Below are positions 1,866 to 20,056 of a DNA stretch of 64,000 bases, one piece after another. Each line of letters starts with the position of its first letter. Position 1 is the stretch's first letter. The stretch spans positions 15,750-79,749 of the forward strand of contig JBMNOL010000001.1 in NCBI GenBank assembly GCA_050943055.1. The letters run 5' to 3'. The position numbers were made by a program, and so were the translations under genes. The notes below the pieces were generated by a model. That model saw only the letters and a list, made by a program, of their open reading frames with translations, did no database searches and was not told the origin of the DNA. This DNA is from Patescibacteria group bacterium. GTDB lineage: Bacteria; Patescibacteriota; Patescibacteriia; Patescibacteriales; UBA12465.

Positions 1866-2540
1866 ATGTTAAATAAAAATATAATCAAAGGTAGTACTCT
1901 TATCGCAGCTATCGCCTTAATCGGCAGCGCGAGTTCAGTCTTAGCAGCCAACGATAATAATTTTAAATTGTGGCAAAAAAATCAACCGCCGAGCAGCCTT
2001 AACACCAACCAAAGACCGGCCCACCGGGGAAATATGGGCTTAACTTTAGGTAAAATAAAACCTGCTAATTTTTCACAACTAACCACCGCTGAGAAGGAAG
2101 CGGTCCGAGTAAAAATGGAGGCAGTTAGAAACGCTTTAAAGACCGCTAATTATCAAGAGTGGGTAAAGGCGGTTAAGGCTTTAAGCCCAAATGCGCCCCA
2201 ACTCCAAACCGTCACCGCAGCCAACTTTCAAGATTATGTTAATCGCTTCCAAGCTAATAATGAAAACAGAGATCTCCACTTAACTAATATGGCCACGCTC
2301 CGAACGGCCATTAATAACAATAATTACGAAGCTTGGAAAGTAGCAGTGAAAAAAATTAATCCTGACTCGCCTTTACTTAGCAAAGTTACTGCTGAAAATT
2401 TCTCCCGTTTAGTCGCGGCCCATAAAGCCGGCACTCCGGCCGAAAAACAAGCGATTTTAAAAGAGTTAGGGGTTGAGCAAGGCCAAGGCCTAAAAGCCGG
2501 GCCAGGACACAGTCAAAAAATGAAGATCCAGCGCAATTAA
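1866..2540 (+). CDS. secreted protein with two internal ~38-aa repeats
   Basis: N-terminal signal peptide (MLNKNIIKGSTLIAAIALIGSASSVLA). Two repeated blocks: NYQEWVKAVKALSPNAPQLQTVTAANFQDYV and NYEAWKVAVKKINPDSPLLSKVTAENFSRLV. The ECF-promoter-like motif at 1769-1810 sits upstream. Confidence 0.6.
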   Translation: MLNKNIIKGSTLIAAIALIGSASSVLAANDNNFKLWQKNQPPSSLNTNQRPAHRGNMGLTLGKIKPANFSQLTTAEKEAVRVKMEAVRNALKTANYQEWVKAVKALSPNAPQLQTVTAANFQDYVNRFQANNENRDLHLTNMATLRTAINNNNYEAWKVAVKKINPDSPLLSKVTAENFSRLVAAHKAGTPAEKQAILKELGVEQGQGLKAGPGHSQKMKIQRN

Positions 2541-3397: not shown

Positions 3398-5293
3398 ATG
3401 AAAAAAATAGAAAAGCGCCCGCCAAAGAAAAATTTTTTTATCTTCTTGGGGGCATTTTTATTAATCTTATTATTAACCAGCGGCGCGATTTTTTTCTTCA
3501 CTTGGAAACTCAACGCTAATAAAATTAACCCGGGCACCAGTGTCGGCCCTATTTTAGTCGGCAATTTAACAATCGGTGAGGCCCAGCAGTTAATAGAAAA
3601 AAATCTGCAGGCTTGGGAGCAATCAAGATTAGTAGTCCGACATAATGATACCCGCTTAGAAATTCCGGCCGCCATCCAAGTCAACGTCGAGGCCAGTTTG
3701 CCAATTTTTACTTGGCAACCGGAACTAATAAATCAATTTTTAACCAACAATCTTGCAGCTAATTCTTGGCAACGTTATTTAGTTAGTTACTTTACCCCCG
3801 CCCACTTAGATATTCCTTATTTCTTAGATGAGGCCTTGCTTAAAAGCTATTTAACTGAAGCTCTTCCCGATCTTACCATCACCCCTCAGGACGCTAGTTT
3901 CATAGTTCATGAAGACTTAAGCACTGATTGGGAATTTACGATTCGGCCGGAACAGATTGGCCGACAAATTAATTTTGAAACGGCTCTCAAAACAATTCAT
4001 AAAAATTTAGCCACCCTAAGCAATGAAGAGGCTGTTCTTACAACCAAATTAGTTCGCCCCCAGGTTTATCAAGCTGATTTAGAAAATTTAAGACCAGCCG
4101 CTCAAGCCTTGATTAATCAAGGTGGTCTAACCTTAACTGTCGCCGCCGATGCAGAAACCGCCACGAGCACTTGGATAGTGCCAAAAAGCACCGTGGCGAC
4201 CTGGATTGTTCCTAAGTTTAATAATCAATCGCAAACGGTCGGTTTGGATTCTAAAAAAATTGCCGCTTATTTAAACGAACTAGTTGCCCCCGATATTAAT
4301 CGCGAACCTCAAGCACCTCGCTATGAACTAGCAGAAAATCGTTTAACTGATTGGTCGCCGGCCGTAATCGGAAAAAAATTAGACACGGAAAAAAGTGTTA
4401 CTGATATTTTAGAAAATTATTTAGAAAATAAAATTACGGAAACGGAGTTAAGTGTCAACCTAATCTTACCGGAAATAAAAAGTGGCGATAACCCCTTAAG
4501 AATTGAAGAACTAATCGGAACTGGCCACTCCAATTTTTCCGGCTCTTCTAAAAACCGACGTCACAACATTAAGGTTGGCGCCGATACTCTACATGGCTTA
4601 CTAATTGCTCCCGGTGAAGAATTTTCTTTAATTAAGGCTCTTGGGGATATGGATGCCAGTGGCGGCTACTTACCGGAATACGTAATTAAAGGTGACAAAA
4701 CCCAACTTGAATATGGTGGCGGCCTATGTCAGGTAGCAACGACCATCTTCCGTTCCGCCTTAGGCTCCGGCCTGCCAATCACGATGCGCCAAAATCATTC
4801 TTACCGCGTTAGCTACTATGAGCCAGCCGGTATGGATGCCGCTATTTATGATCCGCTCCCCGATGTCCGCTTTATCAATGATAGTCCCGATTATATATTG
4901 ATTCAGGCACGCATTGACGGCGATGATCTTTACTTTGATTTCTGGGGTAAAGAGGATGGCCGTGAAGCTACGACCACCACGCCGGTAATTTTTAACATTG
5001 TTAAACCGGCGCCAACAAAAATTATTGAAACCACCGATCTTAAACCCGGCGAAAAAAGATGTACCGAGAGTTCACATAATGGGGCTGATACTTATTTTGA
5101 TTACACTGTTATCTATCCTGACGGTGAAGAAAAAGTGAAGCGCTTTAAATCTCATTATGTTCCTTGGCAAGCAGTTTGTTTAGTCGGCGTCGACCCGGAA
5201 GCGAAAGCGGAAGAGGCAGAACAGACTGAAGCCGAAACAGATTCTTCTAACACTGCTAGCTCTACTCCAGAAACAGAGACGAAGCCGGAATAA
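3398..5293 (+). CDS. VanW-domain membrane-anchored protein with G5-like C-terminal region
   Basis: N-terminal TM helix. VanW signature GGGLCQVATTIFRSALGSGLPITMRQNHSYRVSYYEPAGMDAAIYDP. Contains the near-tandem duplication TWIVPKSTVA/TWIVPKF and an acidic T/E-rich C-terminal tail. Confidence 0.7.
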   Translation: MKKIEKRPPKKNFFIFLGAFLLILLLTSGAIFFFTWKLNANKINPGTSVGPILVGNLTIGEAQQLIEKNLQAWEQSRLVVRHNDTRLEIPAAIQVNVEASLPIFTWQPELINQFLTNNLAANSWQRYLVSYFTPAHLDIPYFLDEALLKSYLTEALPDLTITPQDASFIVHEDLSTDWEFTIRPEQIGRQINFETALKTIHKNLATLSNEEAVLTTKLVRPQVYQADLENLRPAAQALINQGGLTLTVAADAETATSTWIVPKSTVATWIVPKFNNQSQTVGLDSKKIAAYLNELVAPDINREPQAPRYELAENRLTDWSPAVIGKKLDTEKSVTDILENYLENKITETELSVNLILPEIKSGDNPLRIEELIGTGHSNFSGSSKNRRHNIKVGADTLHGLLIAPGEEFSLIKALGDMDASGGYLPEYVIKGDKTQLEYGGGLCQVATTIFRSALGSGLPITMRQNHSYRVSYYEPAGMDAAIYDPLPDVRFINDSPDYILIQARIDGDDLYFDFWGKEDGREATTTTPVIFNIVKPAPTKIIETTDLKPGEKRCTESSHNGADTYFDYTVIYPDGEEKVKRFKSHYVPWQAVCLVGVDPEAKAEEAEQTEAETDSSNTASSTPETETKPE

Positions 5294-5302
5294 TAATTAA
5301 TT

Positions 5303-5340
5303 AAAAAAGAAAGCGCCCCCACAGAGAGGGCGCTTTGATT
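5303..5340. terminator. bidirectional rho-independent terminator
   Basis: GCGCCC-ccacagaga-GGGCGC hairpin. It has a T-run on the plus strand (TTTGATTT) and a U-rich run on the minus strand (complement of aaaaaagaaa), so it serves the VanW gene on + and the candidate sRNA on -. Confidence 0.6.
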
Positions 5341-5521
5341 TAAAAAAAAGATCGTCTGAAACGGGCAGGCAAGAAAATCTCTTCTAGGAATCCCCGAGCC
5401 TATGAGAGAATACCATTTCTGATATTATCTCACAGGCCCAAAAAACCCTAGTAAGAAAATCCCCATGCTTGTCGTGCCTAACCCGTTTCAAACGACCTTA
5501 GTAAAAAGAACTGAAGCGCTA
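5341..5521 (-). ncRNA. candidate structured small RNA (~180 nt, 6S-RNA-like architecture), identity unverified
   Basis: The minus strand carries a canonical sigma-70 promoter: -35 TTGACA at 5552-5557 and -10 TATATT at 5529-5534, with a 17-nt spacer. The predicted transcript forms a 16-bp closing stem (5482-5497 with 5350-5365), perfect on the minus strand with two G-U pairs, enclosing about 110 nt of partly self-complementary sequence. It is followed by U8 and a second terminator hairpin. No ORF is present. Confidence 0.45.
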
Positions 5522-5580
5522 ACGATTCAATATAGCATACCGTTAATTCTTTGTCAAGCCCCTTGGAGTTAGTAACTTTA

Positions 5581-6414
5581 TTAGGGGGTCATTTTTAAAT
5601 AAATTTCTTTATTATTAGCAAATATATTTATAGTACCAAGCTCATCGGTGCGAAAAATATTTCCCGTTATCAACGCTAACCTTTTTAAAGTTTCCGGATG
5701 TGGATGAGAAAATTTATTATCCTTCCCTACTGAGATAATGGCGACAAGCGGCTTAACAGTTCTTAAAAAATTTTCCTGACTAGCACTTGAAGCCCCATGA
5801 TGAGAAATTTTTAAAACATCATAGGTGCTTAAACCGCCCACCAACAAATCAGTCTCGATTTCTTGACCAGCATCACCAGTAAATAAAAACTGACGCTGGC
5901 CGCAGACTAATTCACTGACCACCGACTGGTCATTAACTTCTTTACTGGCGGCGGCGCTCAAAATATTAATCCGACAATACTCCCCAAGCGGAAAAGAGTC
6001 AGCAGCAGTAATTTTTTGTTTAGGAATTTTATTTTTTTCTAAATTACTAAACCACTCTTTAATTAAAATATTATCCTCATCTACTTCTCCATAAAAAACT
6101 TGTTTAATTTGATAGCGCTCACCAAGCTCAATCAAACCGAACAAATGATCGCTGTGTTCATGAGTTAGTAAAACAAAATCTAACTGGCGCTGCCACCAAG
6201 GTAAGACGGTGCTCAATTCTTCTAACAGACGGTTATCGGGACCACCGTCAATTAACAAAGTTTTTTTGTCCGGAGTCACAATTAAAATTGCATCGCCTTG
6301 CCCGACGGAAAGAAAAGAAACCTTAACCGAACCCCGCGGATAAAGTGACTGAGGGAGAAAAACCGTCAGACCAAGTGAAAAAAATAAACTACTGACTAAA
6401 AGTAAGCGTTTCAT
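5581..6414 (-). CDS. secreted MBL-fold metallo-hydrolase, ComEC/Rec2-type beta-lactamase-like domain (stand-alone)
   Basis: Signal peptide. HxHxDH motif (LLTHEHSDHLFGL). C-terminal ISHHGASSASQENFLRTVKPLVAIISVGKDNKFSHPHPETLKRL matches the ComEC C-terminal MBL domain pattern. Confidence 0.75.
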   Translation of the reverse strand: MKRLLLVSSLFFSLGLTVFLPQSLYPRGSVKVSFLSVGQGDAILIVTPDKKTLLIDGGPDNRLLEELSTVLPWWQRQLDFVLLTHEHSDHLFGLIELGERYQIKQVFYGEVDEDNILIKEWFSNLEKNKIPKQKITAADSFPLGEYCRINILSAAASKEVNDQSVVSELVCGQRQFLFTGDAGQEIETDLLVGGLSTYDVLKISHHGASSASQENFLRTVKPLVAIISVGKDNKFSHPHPETLKRLALITGNIFRTDELGTINIFANNKEIYLKMTP

Positions 6415-6515
6415 ATTTTTAGTCTAACACAGCGAGTATCAAGTTTTCCTCAATTACAAAAATCGCCCGGAAACCGGACGATTTTTGTATAATTTTCAAA
6501 TGGCTTAAAAAAGAA

Positions 6516-6740
6516 TTATTTTTTCTTTTTTGGAGCGGCCTTTTTAACTGCTTTTTTAGGAGCAACTTTTTTCGGGGCGGCTTTTTTAACCATCTTTTTC
6601 ACTGCTTTTTTAGGAGCAGCCATCTTTACAACTTTTTTAGGAGCTGCTTTTTTAACCACCTTTTTAACTGCTTTTTTAGGAGCAACTTTTTTCGGGGCGG
6701 CTTTCTTCACAACTTTTTTAGCCGGTTTATTTGCGGGCAT
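6516..6740 (-). CDS. histone H1-like / KAAPKK-repeat basic DNA-binding protein
   Basis: 74 aa from the second Met. AGGAGGTG lies 6 nt upstream of that ATG; the first Met of the track ORF includes the SD. The protein is almost entirely K/A/P/V repeats (KKAAPKKVAPKKAVKKVV x3), and the DNA is a tandem repeat. Confidence 0.6.
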   Translation of the reverse strand: MPANKPAKKVVKKAAPKKVAPKKAVKKVVKKAAPKKVVKMAAPKKAVKKMVKKAAPKKVAPKKAVKKAAPKKKK

Positions 6741-6853
6741 ATTTTCACCTCCTTTCAATTGGAACTAATTTAAAATTTTTTTTAAAAAAAATTACATCGA
6801 CCGAAAAACTTATTCTAATTATACATCCAGATGAAAACGATAGCAATGCTTTT

Positions 6854-8233
6854 TTATTTTTTTAAACGTGCAAAAAAATATTTTTCCAATTCTGAAATTT
6901 TAATTCTCTCTTGAGTCATCGTATCACGATCACGAACAGTTACCGTCTCATCTTCCAAACTATCAAAATCAACGGTGATGCAAAACGGTGTACCAATTTC
7001 ATCTTGACGCCGGTAACGCTTGCCCACATTGCCATTATCATCAAACTCACAAGAAAATTGTGAGCGTAAATTATTATAAATTTTTTGAGCCGCTGCCACT
7101 AACTCCGGTTTATTTTTGAGAAGGGGAAAGACCGCAATCGTGACCGGCGCTAAATCGGCCGGCAATTTTAAAACCACTCTAGTTTCTTTTTCCGAAACAG
7201 TTTCTTCGTGATAAGCAGAAAGTAGGGTCACTAAAAAACAGCGATCTAAACCAAAGCTGGGTTCTAAAACATGAGGCGTGACATGACGATTAGTAGTAGC
7301 TTCAAAATATTCCAACTTTTGATTAGAAAATTCACTGTGTTGTTTTAAATCAAAATCGCCGCGATGAGCTAAACCACACAGTTCTTTAAAGCCACCAAAA
7401 GGCATGTCATACTCTAAGTCAACCGTCTTGCGGGAGTAGTGCGATAATTTTTCTTGGGGATGTTCATAGCGCCGAATTTTTTTAGAGTCAACCCCTAAAT
7501 CATCAACAAAAAAATGTTCCTGCTCCGCCAAAAGAGAAGCAAACAGTGGCTGCCAGTCTTTTTCCGGATCAATAAAATATTCTAATTCCATTTGTTCAAA
7601 TTCGCGAGTTCGAAAAATAAAATTACCGACAATAATCTCATTGCGAAAGGCTTTACCAATTTGCGCAATACCAAAGGGCAGCTTCGGACGCATCACATCA
7701 ACAACATTTTTAAACTCGGCAAAAATAGCGCCCGCTGTCTCCGGACGCAAATAGACCATTTCTTCAACACCATTCATCTCCGTTTTAAACATCATGTTAA
7801 AAAATCTGACCGCGCTCCAATTCTTTGCTCCGCAAGCGGGACAAGCAATTTCTAGCAACGCCTTATTTAAAGCGTCTAAATCACCTTCTAAATCTTGACC
7901 AGTGGCTTCTAAAACTAAATGATCAGCGCGCCAACGCTTACGGCATTTTTTACAATCAACCATGGCATCATTAAAACCACCGACGTGACCGCTGGCTTCC
8001 CATAACCGTGAGGGTAAAATAATCGGACCATCTAAACCATAAACTTCATCCCGACTAGAAACAAAACGATTCCACCATTTCTGTTTTATTTTATTTTTTA
8101 GAGTTACGCCGTAAGGGCCATAACTATAAGCCCCGGACAAACCGCCATAAATTTCCCCGGCCGGAAAAACAAAGCCGCGCCGCTTACAAAGAGAAACAAT
8201 TTTTTCCATTAAATCATTAGTAGCTTCTTTCAT
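6854..8233 (-). CDS. glyQS: glycine--tRNA ligase (class II, alpha2 homodimeric type)
   Basis: 459 aa. The N-terminus MKEATNDLMEKIVSLCKRRGFVFPAGEIYGGLSGAYSYGPYGVTLKNKIKQKWW is diagnostic of dimeric GlyRS. Confidence 0.9.
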   Translation of the reverse strand: MKEATNDLMEKIVSLCKRRGFVFPAGEIYGGLSGAYSYGPYGVTLKNKIKQKWWNRFVSSRDEVYGLDGPIILPSRLWEASGHVGGFNDAMVDCKKCRKRWRADHLVLEATGQDLEGDLDALNKALLEIACPACGAKNWSAVRFFNMMFKTEMNGVEEMVYLRPETAGAIFAEFKNVVDVMRPKLPFGIAQIGKAFRNEIIVGNFIFRTREFEQMELEYFIDPEKDWQPLFASLLAEQEHFFVDDLGVDSKKIRRYEHPQEKLSHYSRKTVDLEYDMPFGGFKELCGLAHRGDFDLKQHSEFSNQKLEYFEATTNRHVTPHVLEPSFGLDRCFLVTLLSAYHEETVSEKETRVVLKLPADLAPVTIAVFPLLKNKPELVAAAQKIYNNLRSQFSCEFDDNGNVGKRYRRQDEIGTPFCITVDFDSLEDETVTVRDRDTMTQERIKISELEKYFFARLKK

Positions 8234-8236
8234 ATT

Positions 8237-9925
8237 TTACATTTCTTCTAAATAAATAAGACCCAACAAATCAAAACCATTTTTTAAAACTTGACTGCAA
8301 GCGCGCACTAACTGCAAACGCCCCGCCGCCACTCCCGGCGCCGCCTTCAAAATCGGTCGCTGTTGGTAGTAATCATTAAACGCCTGCGCGAGCTCAAATA
8401 AGTAACGAGCAATTACCGACGGATCGCGCTCATTCGCCCCCTTGATAACTGTTTCTAAATAGCGCTCTAATTTTAAAACCAAGATTAATTCGGGTTCTTC
8501 GTAATTAGGCGCCTCCTTAGTCTCTAAAATTTTTCCGCTTTTACTCAGTAAGCTAGCAACGCGGGCGCCGGTATATTGCAAGTAAGCGGCCGTGTAACCA
8601 TCAAAACGCAAAGCTTCGGTAATATCAAAAGTGATAATTTTATCGGCGGACACTTTAATCATTTCAAATTTTAAAGCACTGACCGCTAAACCGCGCGCTG
8701 TGGTAGCAACTTTTTCCGCCGACCAATCTTCGTGTCGTTTGATAATTTCTTCACGGGCTCTGGCCTCGGCTTCATCTAAAACTTCTTGAAAAGTAATAAC
8801 ATTGCCGGTGCGCGAAGACATCATGCCATTTTTCAAAGTCAAAAAATCATAACCCAGGTGTGTCATTTTTTCTTGATACCCCATCCGCTTTAAGATGGCA
8901 AACAGTTGCTGAAAGTACAAACCTTGACGAATATCCACGACATAAATTGATTCGGCTAGATCATACTTGGCAAATTTAGCCGAAGCTAAAGCCAAATCAG
9001 CAACGGCATAAAGAGCGGTGCCATCAGAACGAATAATGGGCAGAACACCTAGACCTTCGGGCTCTAAATCAGCAATAATAGCGCCTTCGCTTTTTTTCAG
9101 AATCCCCTTAGCCAGCAACTCATCTTTTATTTTTAAGCCTTGATCAATGAAATCACTCTCATAAAAAGTATCATCGAAGTGAATGTTTAAAATCTGATAA
9201 ACAGAGGCAAAATAATCAAGGCTCCACTGGCGAGTCTCCTGCCAGAGCTGATAGACCTCTCCCTGACGACTCTCAATGGCCTTCATGATTTCACTGACCT
9301 CCTGCTTGGCAGTTTCATCGTCGCCAATTAACTGAACAGCTTCACTATAACAACGGCCTAATAAGTAGCCCTTCGGCTCCGTCGCCGTTGCGTATTTTTC
9401 TTGGCGTTGCCAATTCCAAATAGTTTTAGCCGTATGAATACCAAAATCATTAATATAGGAAACAGGGATAACCTTTTCGCCCGCCGCCGCTAAAATCTTA
9501 GCCACCGCCGCTCCGTAAGAAATATTGCGCAGGTGACCAACGTGTAATTCTTTATGCGTATTCCCATTTGAATATTCAATCATGATCGCCGGCGTCTCGC
9601 GCTCGGGCACAGATCCAAAATTTTTACCACCACTAATAATCTCCGTTGTGGCCGTAGTCGTAAAAATATCGGGCTCTAAAAAGAAATTTAAATAAGGCCC
9701 CACCGCCCGCACCTCTTTAATTGCGGCCGGTAAATCCGGGGCCGTGTTCGCTGTGGCCGCTAATTTAGCAGCTAACTCCGGCGCGCTAATTTTTTGTTTG
9801 GTGGCTTCAGTAAAGAGGGGCCAACTCAAGTGCCCCATTTTTGTCTCGGGTGGATAAACAAAATCCGTTGCCGCACAATTAAATTTTTTTGCTAGTTCTT
9901 CTTTTAACTTTTCCAAGTAAACCAT
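8237..9925 (-). CDS. argS: arginine--tRNA ligase
   Basis: 562 aa. Class I HIGH motif (HVGHLRN), KMSK-like MSSRTGNV, and an anticodon-binding DALR-type C-terminus. Confidence 0.85.
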   Translation of the reverse strand: MVYLEKLKEELAKKFNCAATDFVYPPETKMGHLSWPLFTEATKQKISAPELAAKLAATANTAPDLPAAIKEVRAVGPYLNFFLEPDIFTTTATTEIISGGKNFGSVPERETPAIMIEYSNGNTHKELHVGHLRNISYGAAVAKILAAAGEKVIPVSYINDFGIHTAKTIWNWQRQEKYATATEPKGYLLGRCYSEAVQLIGDDETAKQEVSEIMKAIESRQGEVYQLWQETRQWSLDYFASVYQILNIHFDDTFYESDFIDQGLKIKDELLAKGILKKSEGAIIADLEPEGLGVLPIIRSDGTALYAVADLALASAKFAKYDLAESIYVVDIRQGLYFQQLFAILKRMGYQEKMTHLGYDFLTLKNGMMSSRTGNVITFQEVLDEAEARAREEIIKRHEDWSAEKVATTARGLAVSALKFEMIKVSADKIITFDITEALRFDGYTAAYLQYTGARVASLLSKSGKILETKEAPNYEEPELILVLKLERYLETVIKGANERDPSVIARYLFELAQAFNDYYQQRPILKAAPGVAAGRLQLVRACSQVLKNGFDLLGLIYLEEM

Positions 9926-17840: not shown

Positions 17841-18881
17841 TTAAAAAAGTGGTTCTAAAAACTTGATTACGGTCAATAAGAAGCGATCTGAGCAATTTAT
17901 TTTTTTCTTCTTCTTGTAATTAAACGGGGTGCTGGTTTTTTTCCAATTATCAAAAATTCTGAGTAGATTTCGCACTGCCTCTTTTTGAGAAAAGAAAATA
18001 CCGGCTTCAAAATTTATACCAAAAGAAAAAATATCCAAATTTTGCGACCCCACCACCGCCTCCTCGTCGTCAATAATCATTATTTTAGAATGATTCATGA
18101 CAGGGAGAAAATAACAGCGGGTGCCGAGAGCACTTAACCGCCCAGCATTTAAATAATTAACTTTATTTAAGGAGCGATGGTCAGTATTTTTTGGTATTAA
18201 AATTTCCACCCGGACGCCCCGTCTTAGGGCGCTATCAATAAGAGCCATTAGCCAACGTGGGGGCGCTAAATAAGGAGAAGTCATCTTGACGCTTTTTTGA
18301 GCATTAGCGATTTTCTCTCGGTAATAATTGTCTAGATAATAAGTCTTGCGCGAACGTGGCCAATTATCAACTAACCACGCCTTAATTTTTCTTGATAAAG
18401 CCTGTTCTGAGTAGGCTAAAATTTGCGGATTCTTGCCACCCGAAATTTTATAAGTATAAGCAAAGCTTTTTAGAATCGGTTTTACGACTACTCCCGAAAC
18501 TTGCATTGTTAAATCATTCCACTGCTGAGTATTTTTCTTGATGTTCGCCCCGCCAATAAAAGCTAATTTTTTATCAATAACCAATATTTTTCGGTGACTG
18601 CGATAAAGGAGATGGCTAAAAAAATGTAAGTCTACGCCGGCAGTTCTCAGTCTTTTAATCGCCTTTTTTGATAAGTTATGACTACCGAAGGCATCTAAAA
18701 CTAAAACAACTAAAACGCCAGCCTCGGCTTTGGCAACCAATAGCCCCACAAAGTCATGAGTCTCGCGCGTATCTTCTAAAAAAATATACATTTCCAAAAA
18801 AACAGATTCCTGGGCCTGACTGATGGCTTGATACATGCCTGACCAAACGCTAGTGGATTTTGTATAAAAACGATAAGACAT
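17841..18881 (-). CDS. phospholipase D / cardiolipin-synthase-like protein with two HKD motifs
   Basis: HRKILVIDKKLAFIGGANI and HSKIMIIDDEEAVVGSQNLD. There is no N-terminal TM segment. Confidence 0.8.
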   Translation of the reverse strand: MSYRFYTKSTSVWSGMYQAISQAQESVFLEMYIFLEDTRETHDFVGLLVAKAEAGVLVVLVLDAFGSHNLSKKAIKRLRTAGVDLHFFSHLLYRSHRKILVIDKKLAFIGGANIKKNTQQWNDLTMQVSGVVVKPILKSFAYTYKISGGKNPQILAYSEQALSRKIKAWLVDNWPRSRKTYYLDNYYREKIANAQKSVKMTSPYLAPPRWLMALIDSALRRGVRVEILIPKNTDHRSLNKVNYLNAGRLSALGTRCYFLPVMNHSKIMIIDDEEAVVGSQNLDIFSFGINFEAGIFFSQKEAVRNLLRIFDNWKKTSTPFNYKKKKKINCSDRFLLTVIKFLEPLF

Positions 18882-19747
18882 TAGGCAGCTAAAAGACGTT
18901 TAAGTTTAGGAAGTTGTTTTTTTGTTTCTTGATAGCCAATTGCCATCATCTCCGCCAGGTTTTTAGGGGTAAGCAGCTGGCTGGGTTTTTTATTAATATA
19001 AGCGGAAAGGTCGGGACTAATTATTAAGTCCGCGCTTTGAATTGAATGCTTAGCTAAATGATAAAGAGCAATCCGCGAGGTCCGTAAAGCGGCTTTAACT
19101 AAATTCAATTCTTCGTTAACAAACTCATGACGATGATATAAATTAACGGCAATGATAATTTCGGCGCCCGCCTCTTTAAGAGTCTTAACTGGCACCGGAT
19201 TACTTAAGCCGCCGTCAACAAAATAACGATTTTTTAATTTCAGCGGTTCAAAAATTAAAGGCACTGAACAACTAGCACAAACCGCACTCGCTAAAGAACC
19301 GCTTTTAACAATTTTGCCGGTGCCACCACTTAAATCCGTCACCGCGACTCGCAAAGGGATTTTAGTGTTAGCAAAAGTTTCTGTCTTAAAAATTTCTTTT
19401 AAAATGTTTTCTAAGGTCTTGCCTTTAATCAACCCCGGTGATAGGCGTAAATCAGACAAGCCAATTCTTTTTAAAGATCGTGCCCGCTCCAGCAAGTATT
19501 CGGTAGTCGCGTTCGCCTCTAGAGACAGCGCGTAACAAGCCGCCACCAAAGAACCAATCGAGGCGCCACTAATAAAATCTATTTTTATCTCCGCCTCTTC
19601 TAAAGCTTGTAAGACCCCTAAAAGAGCAAAACCACGTTGACCGCCACTACCTAAAGCAAGGCCGATTTTTTTAGGATTATTTTTTGTTTTCATAATTGAA
19701 TTATATCTTAGCCTGAGGGAAAAAACAAAAAGAGTACACTCTGACAC
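18881..19747 (-). CDS. patatin-like phospholipase
   Basis: Gly-rich oxyanion loop LGSGGQRGF, nucleophile elbow GASIGSL and the DGG catalytic Asp motif. Its stop overlaps the PLD gene start by 1 nt. Confidence 0.85.
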   Translation of the reverse strand: MSECTLFVFSLRLRYNSIMKTKNNPKKIGLALGSGGQRGFALLGVLQALEEAEIKIDFISGASIGSLVAACYALSLEANATTEYLLERARSLKRIGLSDLRLSPGLIKGKTLENILKEIFKTETFANTKIPLRVAVTDLSGGTGKIVKSGSLASAVCASCSVPLIFEPLKLKNRYFVDGGLSNPVPVKTLKEAGAEIIIAVNLYHRHEFVNEELNLVKAALRTSRIALYHLAKHSIQSADLIISPDLSAYINKKPSQLLTPKNLAEMMAIGYQETKKQLPKLKRLLAA

Positions 19748-19759
19748 ACTTTTTTTATG

Positions 19760-19776
19760 TAGTCCCTAGGGGAATT
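19760..19776 (-). repeat. 17-nt direct duplicate of the tRNA-Glu 3' end (att-like remnant)
   Basis: GTAGTCCCTAGGGGAAT occurs at 19760-19776 and again at 19984-20000, inside tRNA-Glu. Between them lies a 208-bp GC-rich segment unlike the surrounding AT-rich DNA. Confidence 0.5.
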
Positions 19777-19940
19777 ATCGCGCTCGCCCGCCGCCGTTAT
19801 GCGGCGAGCTCACTTGTCCAGAGTTGGCGTCCGAATATCCCCCGGATATTCGTCCGACGCTCGTCCGCTCGTTCCGGCTTCCGCCGTCTCTCGCATCTCG
19901 CTTCCAACTTGTTCGATTCCCCAGCCTAACGGCTGTCTAA

Positions 19941-19975
19941 CTAAAAAGCGCCCAGTTTGCACTGGACGCTTTTTA
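19941..19975. terminator. terminator hairpin downstream of tRNA-Glu
   Basis: GCGCCCAGT-ttgc-ACTGGACGC. On the minus strand this is a perfect 9-bp stem with one G-U pair, followed by a U-run. The + orientation has a C-A mismatch but also a T-run. Confidence 0.6.
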
Positions 19976-19984
19976 GTTAGCTAG

Positions 19985-20056
19985 TAGTCCCTAGGGGAAT
20001 CGAACCCCTGTTACCAGGATGAAAACCTGGTGTCCTAACCACTAGACGAAGGGACC
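19985..20056 (-). tRNA. tRNA-Glu (anticodon UUC)
   Basis: Reverse complement GGTCCCTTCGTCTAGTGGTTAGGACACCAGGTTTTCATCCTGGTAACAGGGGTTCGATTCCCCTAGGGACTA. Anticodon stem CCAGG/CCTGG with loop TTTTCAT. Closely resembles E. coli tRNA-Glu. Confidence 0.85.

Follow-up and report, generated by a model that had tools for sequence, protein, structure and literature searches.

The 64,000-nt stretch of DNA analysed here (hereafter the window) comes from a Patescibacteria group bacterium (assembly GCA_050943055.1, contig JBMNOL010000001.1, positions 15,750 to 79,749 of the forward strand), and raises the question of what is encoded on its minus strand at 5340-5557, in the gap between two convergent genes. 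An initial annotation, made from the sequence alone, had proposed a strongly promoted RNA of ~180 nt resembling 6S RNA (SsrS). The analysis strongly supports the reading that this region is an independent, strongly promoted gene for a structured non-coding RNA without an open reading frame (ORF), based on its conservation, its covariation, its conserved promoter and the loss of the overlapping ORFs in relatives. Judged from its sequence, the RNA is a member of a widespread and strongly constrained family of the candidate phyla radiation (CPR)/Patescibacteria that is not in Rfam 15.

The promoter is the one initially described. The -35 hexamer TTGACA (5552-5557, minus strand), located by a promoter scan and invariant in syntenic relatives, is followed after 17 nt by the extended -10 element TGcTATATT (5529-5537), with TG at 5537-5536 and TATATT at 5534-5529. 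Agreeing at 11 of 12 positions and carrying the extended -10 in addition, it is the top sigma-70-type match within 4500-6500. The distance from the -10 and a family RGTY motif place the probable start site near G5523, giving a predicted transcript of ~184 nt that ends in the U8 tract (5340-5347), in line with the length first proposed. Together with the closing stem P1 described below, the U8 tract constitutes the RNA's own intrinsic terminator. The first ~24 nt (5500-5523) are an AU-rich leader, predicted to be mostly unpaired, whose sequence differs among relatives and includes a 2-nt indel. A second terminator, consisting of a hairpin (5336-5310) and a T run (5300-5336 overall), was found by a terminator scan between the RNA gene and the end of the downstream VanW-like gene, so that both the U8 tract and the second hairpin of the initial annotation are present. 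This second terminator is kept in the closer syntenic relatives and absent from locus L092, and thus lies outside the conserved RNA.

Two ORFs of 35 aa overlap the element, one on the minus strand (5384-5491) and one on the plus strand (5465-5572). Both are broken by indels of 1 or 2 nt (the U run has lost 1 nt and the leader 2 nt) in loci L086, L087, L089 and L091, in which the surrounding sequence is conserved. Since these indels disrupt both small ORFs, the element is most readily read as non-coding. A gene for a small protein or a type I toxin was considered and rejected on account of the frame-breaking indels, and the small conserved ORF that the initial annotation had named as the finding that would speak against an RNA was not found.

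The transcript is predicted to fold into a single hairpin (5348-5499, minus strand) of 152 nt with 65 pairs, 15 of which are G·U. Its minimum free energy is -86.2 kcal/mol (z -11.3) on the minus strand compared with -49.7 kcal/mol on the plus strand, an asymmetry caused by the 15 G·U pairs. No other 160-nt segment of the 64 kb, on either strand, is as stable as the hairpin, which lies 6.5 standard deviations below the mean, and the element is present there as a single copy. The 16-bp helix that had been noted between the transcript ends (5482-5497 with 5350-5365) is indeed perfect when read on the minus strand, two of its pairs being G·U, and forms the base of this longer hairpin. The description of an interrupted, rod-like interior with bubbles was less accurate; the interior is a near-continuous helix with one 10-nt bulge, on the 5' strand only (5474-5465).

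From base to tip, the minus-strand hairpin is composed of a closing stem, two short conserved helices flanking the bulge, a spacer helix, an apical module and a terminal expansion. The closing stem P1 (5480-5499 with 5348-5366) is backed by pairing and by family covariation. In P2, AGGCA (5475-5479) pairs with UGCCU (5367-5371). The bulge CGACAAGCAU (5465-5474), with an unpaired probability of at least 0.97, adjoins the G·U-rich helix P3, in which GGGGA (5460-5464) pairs with UCUUU (5372-5376). P3 is paired in the predicted ensemble and is worth only ~3.9 kcal/mol. The joined 3' strands of P3 and P2, UUUCU-UGCCU (5367-5376), correspond to the near-invariant UUUCUUGCCU. The spacer helix (5444-5459 with 5377-5391), defined by pairing and spacing counts, is variable in sequence and fixed in length. 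It leads to the apical module, which consists of UUUU-G-GGC on the 5' strand (5436-5443) and GCU-C-GGGG on the 3' strand (5392-5399, assigned by mapping the family alignment onto the window). The invariant GG at 5438-5437 of this module contributes the pairs G5438·U5397 and G5437-C5398, which are the invariant G·U and G-C pairs of the family. The remaining 36 nt (5400-5435) form a lineage-specific expansion hairpin, which the covariance model treats as a terminal-loop insertion and whose stem covaries in loci L089, L091 and L092.

Conservation of the RNA was compared with that of its neighbours. As initially annotated, the flanking genes are convergent. The upstream neighbour (5581-6414, minus strand) encodes a 277-aa metallo-beta-lactamase (MBL)-fold protein similar to the C-terminal domain of ComEC, and the downstream neighbour (3398-5293, plus strand), convergent with the RNA gene, encodes a 631-aa VanW-like protein, with whose coding sequence the RNA gene does not overlap. 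In contigs with relatives of the MBL protein, from 97% down to 41% identity, the order of MBL gene, gap and VanW gene is kept, and the element and its promoter are present in the gap of every such syntenic contig. In all nine syntenic loci the bulge is identical, even where the neighbour protein has fallen to 41% identity. At the nucleotide level, the RNA is more conserved than both flanking genes, with identities of 95% versus 76% and 84% in locus L086 and of 79% versus 58% and 69% in locus L091. The more distant syntenic loci show compensatory substitutions in the apical stem and the closing stem. A scan of GTDB genomes anchored on glycyl-tRNA synthetase (GlyRS) returned distant relatives only (best 60-64%), and the loci of these genomes carry no copy of the RNA. 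Gene content and the closest GlyRS relatives assign the organism to CPR/Patescibacteria.

Beyond the syntenic loci, the family was recruited with the 18-mer GGCACGACAAGCATGGGG from the internal loop, which was scanned over metagenome contigs and found in at least 120 metagenome stretches. Except for three GC-rich chance matches, the matching contigs listed are AT-rich and CPR-like and show the same hairpin design. A covariance model (R1) of 117 positions, built from 48 diverse members, gave 104 matches in 100 sources, representing 97 distinct sequences. Window positions 5350-5497 (minus strand) match model positions 1-117 of 117 with 97.8 bits (E ~1e-31), and the window has the invariant modules, the ~25-nt spacer and the family promoter, as expected of a member; all modules fall within 5436-5479 and 5367-5399, and the promoter within 5529-5557. 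Proteins encoded next to the family members are named after Falkowbacteria, Parcubacteria or 'Patescibacteria group'.

Covariation in homologous regions, which the initial annotation had set as the test of a structured RNA, is strong in both alignments of the family. In the MAFFT alignment, 89.9% of the cells are paired compared with 77.0% after shuffling, with 201 double changes versus 70, and none of 500 shuffles reaches the observed value. In the model-fitted alignment, 94.3% of the cells are paired compared with 82.0% after shuffling, with 350 double changes versus 115, and pairing falls to 29-58% when the partners are slid. The proposed scan against Rfam, with 6S and then with all bacterial families, gave no family match. 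Rfam 15 has no family for the element at the gathering score, either in the window or among 41 related loci; at E<=10, no matching family was found for window positions 5200-5700 or for a typical member in locus L124. The output of these searches consisted only of tRNA, rRNA, introns and generic microRNA-hairpin noise. The 18-mer has no match in 2.9 million viral contigs (IMG/VR), where a relaxed pattern gave 13 matches that were all rejected by the covariance model. A search of the available literature on 6S RNA, signal recognition particle (SRP) RNA and structured RNAs or motifs in CPR/Patescibacteria found nothing relevant.

The family alignment separates the hairpin into freely varying and nearly frozen parts. 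P1, of ~16-20 bp, is free in sequence, and all seven of its outer pairs and most of its inner pairs change on both sides. P2 is AGGCA/UGCCU throughout, save for the compensatory variants UGGCA/UGCCA, GGGCA/UGCCC and AGACA/UGUCU. P3 has GGGGA opposite UYYYU and is paired in 97.5-98.5% of the cells across the family; since the exchanges on its 3' strand are exclusively between U and C, converting G·U into G-C pairs and back, this helix is taken to form. The apical module begins with a 1x1 mismatch, replaced in the window by a G-C pair; next come the invariant G·U and G-C pairs, each present in 89 of 90 members in the model-fitted alignment. The two modules are set apart by a helix of ~25 bp that is free in sequence and fixed in length: counted along the 3' strand, 25 nt separate P3 from the apical G·U pair in 70 of 89 members and 24 nt do so in a further 16, and the 5' strand has 26 nt between them in 55 of 89 (range 23-27). 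Past this point the constraint ends. The apical segment from the G to the U of the G·U pair measures 10-86 nt among the aligned members, and the terminal loop is variable and tolerates insertions from a few nt to ~165 nt. Loci L148, L161 and L123 (core at 2745, 7096 and 192 of the reverse complement) carry an insert that sets the two halves of the RNA ~225 nt apart and has its own hairpin (GAAACUUUUUU...AAAAAAGUUUC). These loci had been considered as half copies, a reading rejected in favour of full members with terminal-loop inserts of ~165 nt.

The promoter is part of the family as well. TTGACA-17-TGnTAnnnT occurs in 79 of 90 distinct members, with a spacer of 17 nt in all 79, a perfect TTGACA in 78 and the TG in 78. 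The stretch between the -10 and P1 is AU-rich and 14-64 nt long, with a conserved RGTY 5-8 nt past the -10, and a U run directly follows P1 in nearly all members. Some copies depart from this arrangement. Tandem dimers occur in loci L115 (214-462), L134 (8136-8387) and L194 (8531-8869), and the second copies in L115 and L134 have no promoter of their own. In these second copies, which were found by the model without the search word, the bulge is unchanged while P2 covaries to AGACA/UGUCU. Locus L097 has an 83-nt member without a promoter (2424-2528, minus strand), located between tRNA-Ile(tat) and tRNA-Gly(tcc) in an array of 21 tRNA genes that covers most amino acids, which suggests that this copy is co-transcribed with the tRNAs and processed as a stable RNA.

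The genomic neighbours of the RNA vary across the family. Of 96 loci, 51 have a convergent VanW-like gene downstream and 27 a gene for a 245-aa protein; upstream lies the gene for RNase J in 27 of 90 loci and that for the MBL protein in 19 of 90. In a Falkowbacteria-like group, the RNA is located between RNase J and the convergent 245-aa protein, and rRNA genes are often found no more than a few kb away (loci L118, L124, L130, L142, L186 and L204). Since no single partner gene is conserved across the loci, the product of the RNA gene appears to act in trans.

What such a product might do is suggested by its architecture. A spacer of fixed length and free sequence, combined with a tip that tolerates insertions, argues for a bipartite docking site. 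We therefore favour, with a probability of roughly 55%, the explanation that the RNA acts in trans by docking one conserved macromolecular partner. Such a partner would bind the two modules together, their spacing and helical phase being fixed, and the terminal loop would point away from it. The leading candidate for this partner is the sigma-A RNA polymerase holoenzyme, a proposal that we put forward as speculative and rather unlikely in its own right. If it were correct, P1 and P2 (~21-24 bp) would imitate the downstream duplex and sit in its channel, the 10-nt bulge would take the place of the single-stranded template, P3, G·U-rich and easily melted, would represent the upstream edge of the transcription bubble, and the apical motif at a distance of 25 bp would mimic the -35 element. 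The whole would be a miniature 6S-like mimic of an open promoter. The polymerase model also predicts a product RNA, complementary to 5465-5485 and starting 5'-AUGCUUGUCGUGCCU, which would read as plus strand 5465-5485, 5'-AUGCUUGUCGUGCCUAACCC... More broadly, we tentatively propose a ribonucleoprotein confined to CPR/Patescibacteria with this RNA at its core, the RNA being either a miniature 6S-type open-promoter decoy for RNA polymerase, whose one-sided bubble would be 'template-only', or a subunit of another housekeeping complex. On either reading it may, again tentatively, be under selection as strict as that on tRNAs.

The comparison with known 6S RNAs bears on how far the polymerase model can be taken. 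Like 6S RNA, the RNA is independently transcribed, has no ORF and is predicted to form a rod-like hairpin whose closing stem is made of 5'- and 3'-proximal sequences (PMC8876501). It shares with 6S RNA an internal single-stranded region at about one third of its length, an apical arm with imperfect pairing and a dispensable, variable terminal loop; the window transcript of ~184 nt is in the 6S size range; and the apical G·U/G-C step, whose distance of ~25 bp to the internal loop is fixed, would be compatible with a '-35-like' region. Size need not exclude a small 6S-like RNA, since truncated 6S-1 RNAs still work in vitro: one composed of the central bubble and two short arms completes the 6S cycle, although it binds about tenfold less tightly (PMC8876501). 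In these respects a 6S-like mode of action is geometrically plausible as a model. A lineage-restricted 6S-like rod is also described in actinobacteria, where Ms1 RNA is missed by 6S sequence models and reportedly docks RNA polymerase (PMC4191392, PMC9130861). The present RNA is set beside Ms1 by this description.

Several observations weigh against the docking explanation or against RNA polymerase as the partner, and they are gathered here. The 18-mer is invariant in the metagenome set partly by construction, as the same word recruited the set, and unbiased support for its invariance is limited to the nine syntenic loci and the tandem copies found by the model. In 51 of 96 loci the RNA gene converges with a VanW-like gene, suggesting a local role for which docking offers no explanation. 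Recognition of 6S RNA uses a -10-like region in the unpaired 3' side of the bubble (PMC8876501), whereas the internal loop of the present RNA is one-sided, comprising 10 nt of the 5' strand and none of the 3' strand, so that it has neither a two-sided central bubble nor a 3' -10-like region. Its 15-20 invariant nt represent a sequence conservation far above that usual for 6S RNAs, whose sequence identity is limited. The hairpin of most members measures 113-125 nt and follows a single-stranded 5' leader of widely varying length, unlike 6S RNA, and the members in L097 and L098/L162 are only 83-89 nt long, with at least that in L098 lacking the apical module. Lastly, no Rfam 6S model (RF00013 and related families) matches the window or the related loci. 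Assignment to the 6S (SsrS) family is accordingly not supported, and of the initial proposal of a structured small RNA resembling 6S, the structured non-coding RNA holds and the 6S label does not; 6S-like remains a reasonable description as a functional guess.

These points also weigh against a first alternative, that the RNA is a true but highly divergent 6S (SsrS) orthologue that sequesters the sigma-A polymerase and is released by synthesis of a product RNA. The rod shape, the closing stem, the variable terminal loop, the strong promoter, the ~184-nt length and the single copy in the window would all suit an orthologue, as would a 5' single-stranded loop that is reached after ~50 nt of transcript and precedes a transcribable downstream helix, and a conserved element fixed ~25 bp up the apical arm, where the -35-like region is expected. 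A search of ~440 kb of related contigs, itself a weak test, found no canonical 6S RNA. Orthology is nevertheless unlikely, given that the Rfam 6S models have no match even at E<=10, that the pairing of P3 leaves no unpaired 3' central bubble and is backed by the U-to-C exchanges, and that both the short typical hairpin and the invariant sequence are atypical of 6S RNAs. A second universal ribonucleoprotein RNA, most plausibly the SRP RNA (4.5S; RF00169), invites a similar comparison. Like SRP RNA, the present RNA is a single hairpin, of ~85-190 nt, with a strong promoter and a housekeeping look, and has two functional-looking sites joined by a helix of constrained length; the single copy in the window, the copy inside the tRNA array, placed like a stable RNA, and the lack of a canonical SRP RNA in ~440 kb of related contigs, again a weak test, could be cited in its favour. 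Unlike SRP RNA, however, the present RNA matches no Rfam SRP model at the gathering score or at E<=10, and its invariant module lies near the base rather than at the apex. The symmetric and asymmetric loop motif of domain IV is absent from the apex, and the terminal loop has no conserved GNAR tetraloop. As the tip varies freely and takes insertions from a few nt to ~165 nt, it is incompatible with the function of domain IV. A regular-expression search for domain IV in ~1.9 Mb of loci gave nothing convincing and was itself uninformative. A divergent SRP RNA is hardly tenable and was rejected for its missing tetraloop and domain IV loops and its hypervariable tip.

Three further explanations dispense with a docked partner. 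The RNA could be a base-pairing small RNA that uses the bulge CGACAAGCAU, possibly extended into GGGG, as a seed for mRNA or stable-RNA targets. The bulge is predicted to be fully accessible and is invariant in the family, and the single-stranded, AU-rich 5' leader would fit, but complementary sites with at most three mismatches are no more frequent in the 64-kb window than expected (3 versus 2.5, one of the three being the gene itself), the longest complementarity to one CPR 16S rRNA and part of one 23S rRNA is 7 nt with none to one 5S rRNA, and the second invariant module at a fixed 25 bp is left unexplained. Moreover, the reduced CPR genomes are not known to encode Hfq- or ProQ-type chaperones, and a seed function is thus quite improbable. 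The RNA could also be a cis element of the convergent VanW-like gene, controlling its expression or termination in antisense or from its 3' end. The association, which persists across loci with differing upstream genes, is the observation that such a role would account for. It is opposed by the RNA's own terminator and, in the window, by the second terminator that separates the two non-overlapping genes, by the unrelated 245-aa protein found downstream instead in 27 of 96 loci, by copies that reside in a tRNA array or as tandem dimers, and by the many genomes in which the RNA and a VanW gene are unlinked, all of which render a cis role very improbable. Finally, a long inverted repeat between convergent genes may be a DNA-level element, such as a miniature inverted-repeat transposable element (MITE), a repetitive extragenic palindromic (REP) sequence or an oversized bidirectional terminator. 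The single copy in the window, the conserved dedicated promoter and the lack of the 18-mer in viral contigs all speak against this, and the strong strand asymmetry of the fold together with covariation that preserves RNA pairs, including exchanges of G·U for G-C, effectively refutes it. Docking of a conserved partner remains the explanation that we prefer.

Some neighbouring features were recorded in the course of the analysis. Between GlyRS and the MBL gene, the window has small ORFs only (48 and 80 aa, within 6419-6850), and relatives of the window have a called gene of 61-91 aa in this place. In locus L003, from Peregrinibacteria UBA1369, the nearest named relative, a single ORF of 803 aa (7421-9832) follows GlyRS and possibly encodes a complete ComEC. 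In the lineage of the window, the ComEC-like MBL domain is a protein of its own, with 1828 homologues at E<=1e-20. The 23S rRNA gene of locus L204 (4432-6651, minus strand) is split by three group I introns identified by Rfam matches; interruption by introns is typical of CPR rRNA genes. A second strongly structured and locally GC-rich stretch is present in the window at 19760-19990 (minus strand; -107.1 kcal/mol, z -7.9), directly downstream of a tRNA gene (19985-20056, minus strand) and upstream of an ORF (18881-19747, minus strand). Its multi-stem fold includes a perfect stem of ~20 bp, it matches no Rfam family at E<=1, and it may be another unannotated RNA.

In summary, a hairpin RNA gene in a Patescibacteria genome leads to a family whose features deserve attention in bacteria whose genomes are tiny and in which very few regulatory RNAs have been recognised. 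At least 97 distinct members, a housekeeping-type promoter, 15-20 invariant nt, a conserved G·U pair and a fixed spacer together point to an important RNA-protein machine that annotation has missed. The covariance model could be used to annotate the gene in CPR genomes, and the sequence predicts a specific product RNA that can be sought in existing metatranscriptomes. If the RNA is bound by RNA polymerase, 6S-type regulation would extend to this superphylum in a stripped-down form, which would show the minimal needs of a polymerase decoy; if the partner is another one, the RNA would mark an undescribed ribonucleoprotein of these bacteria.

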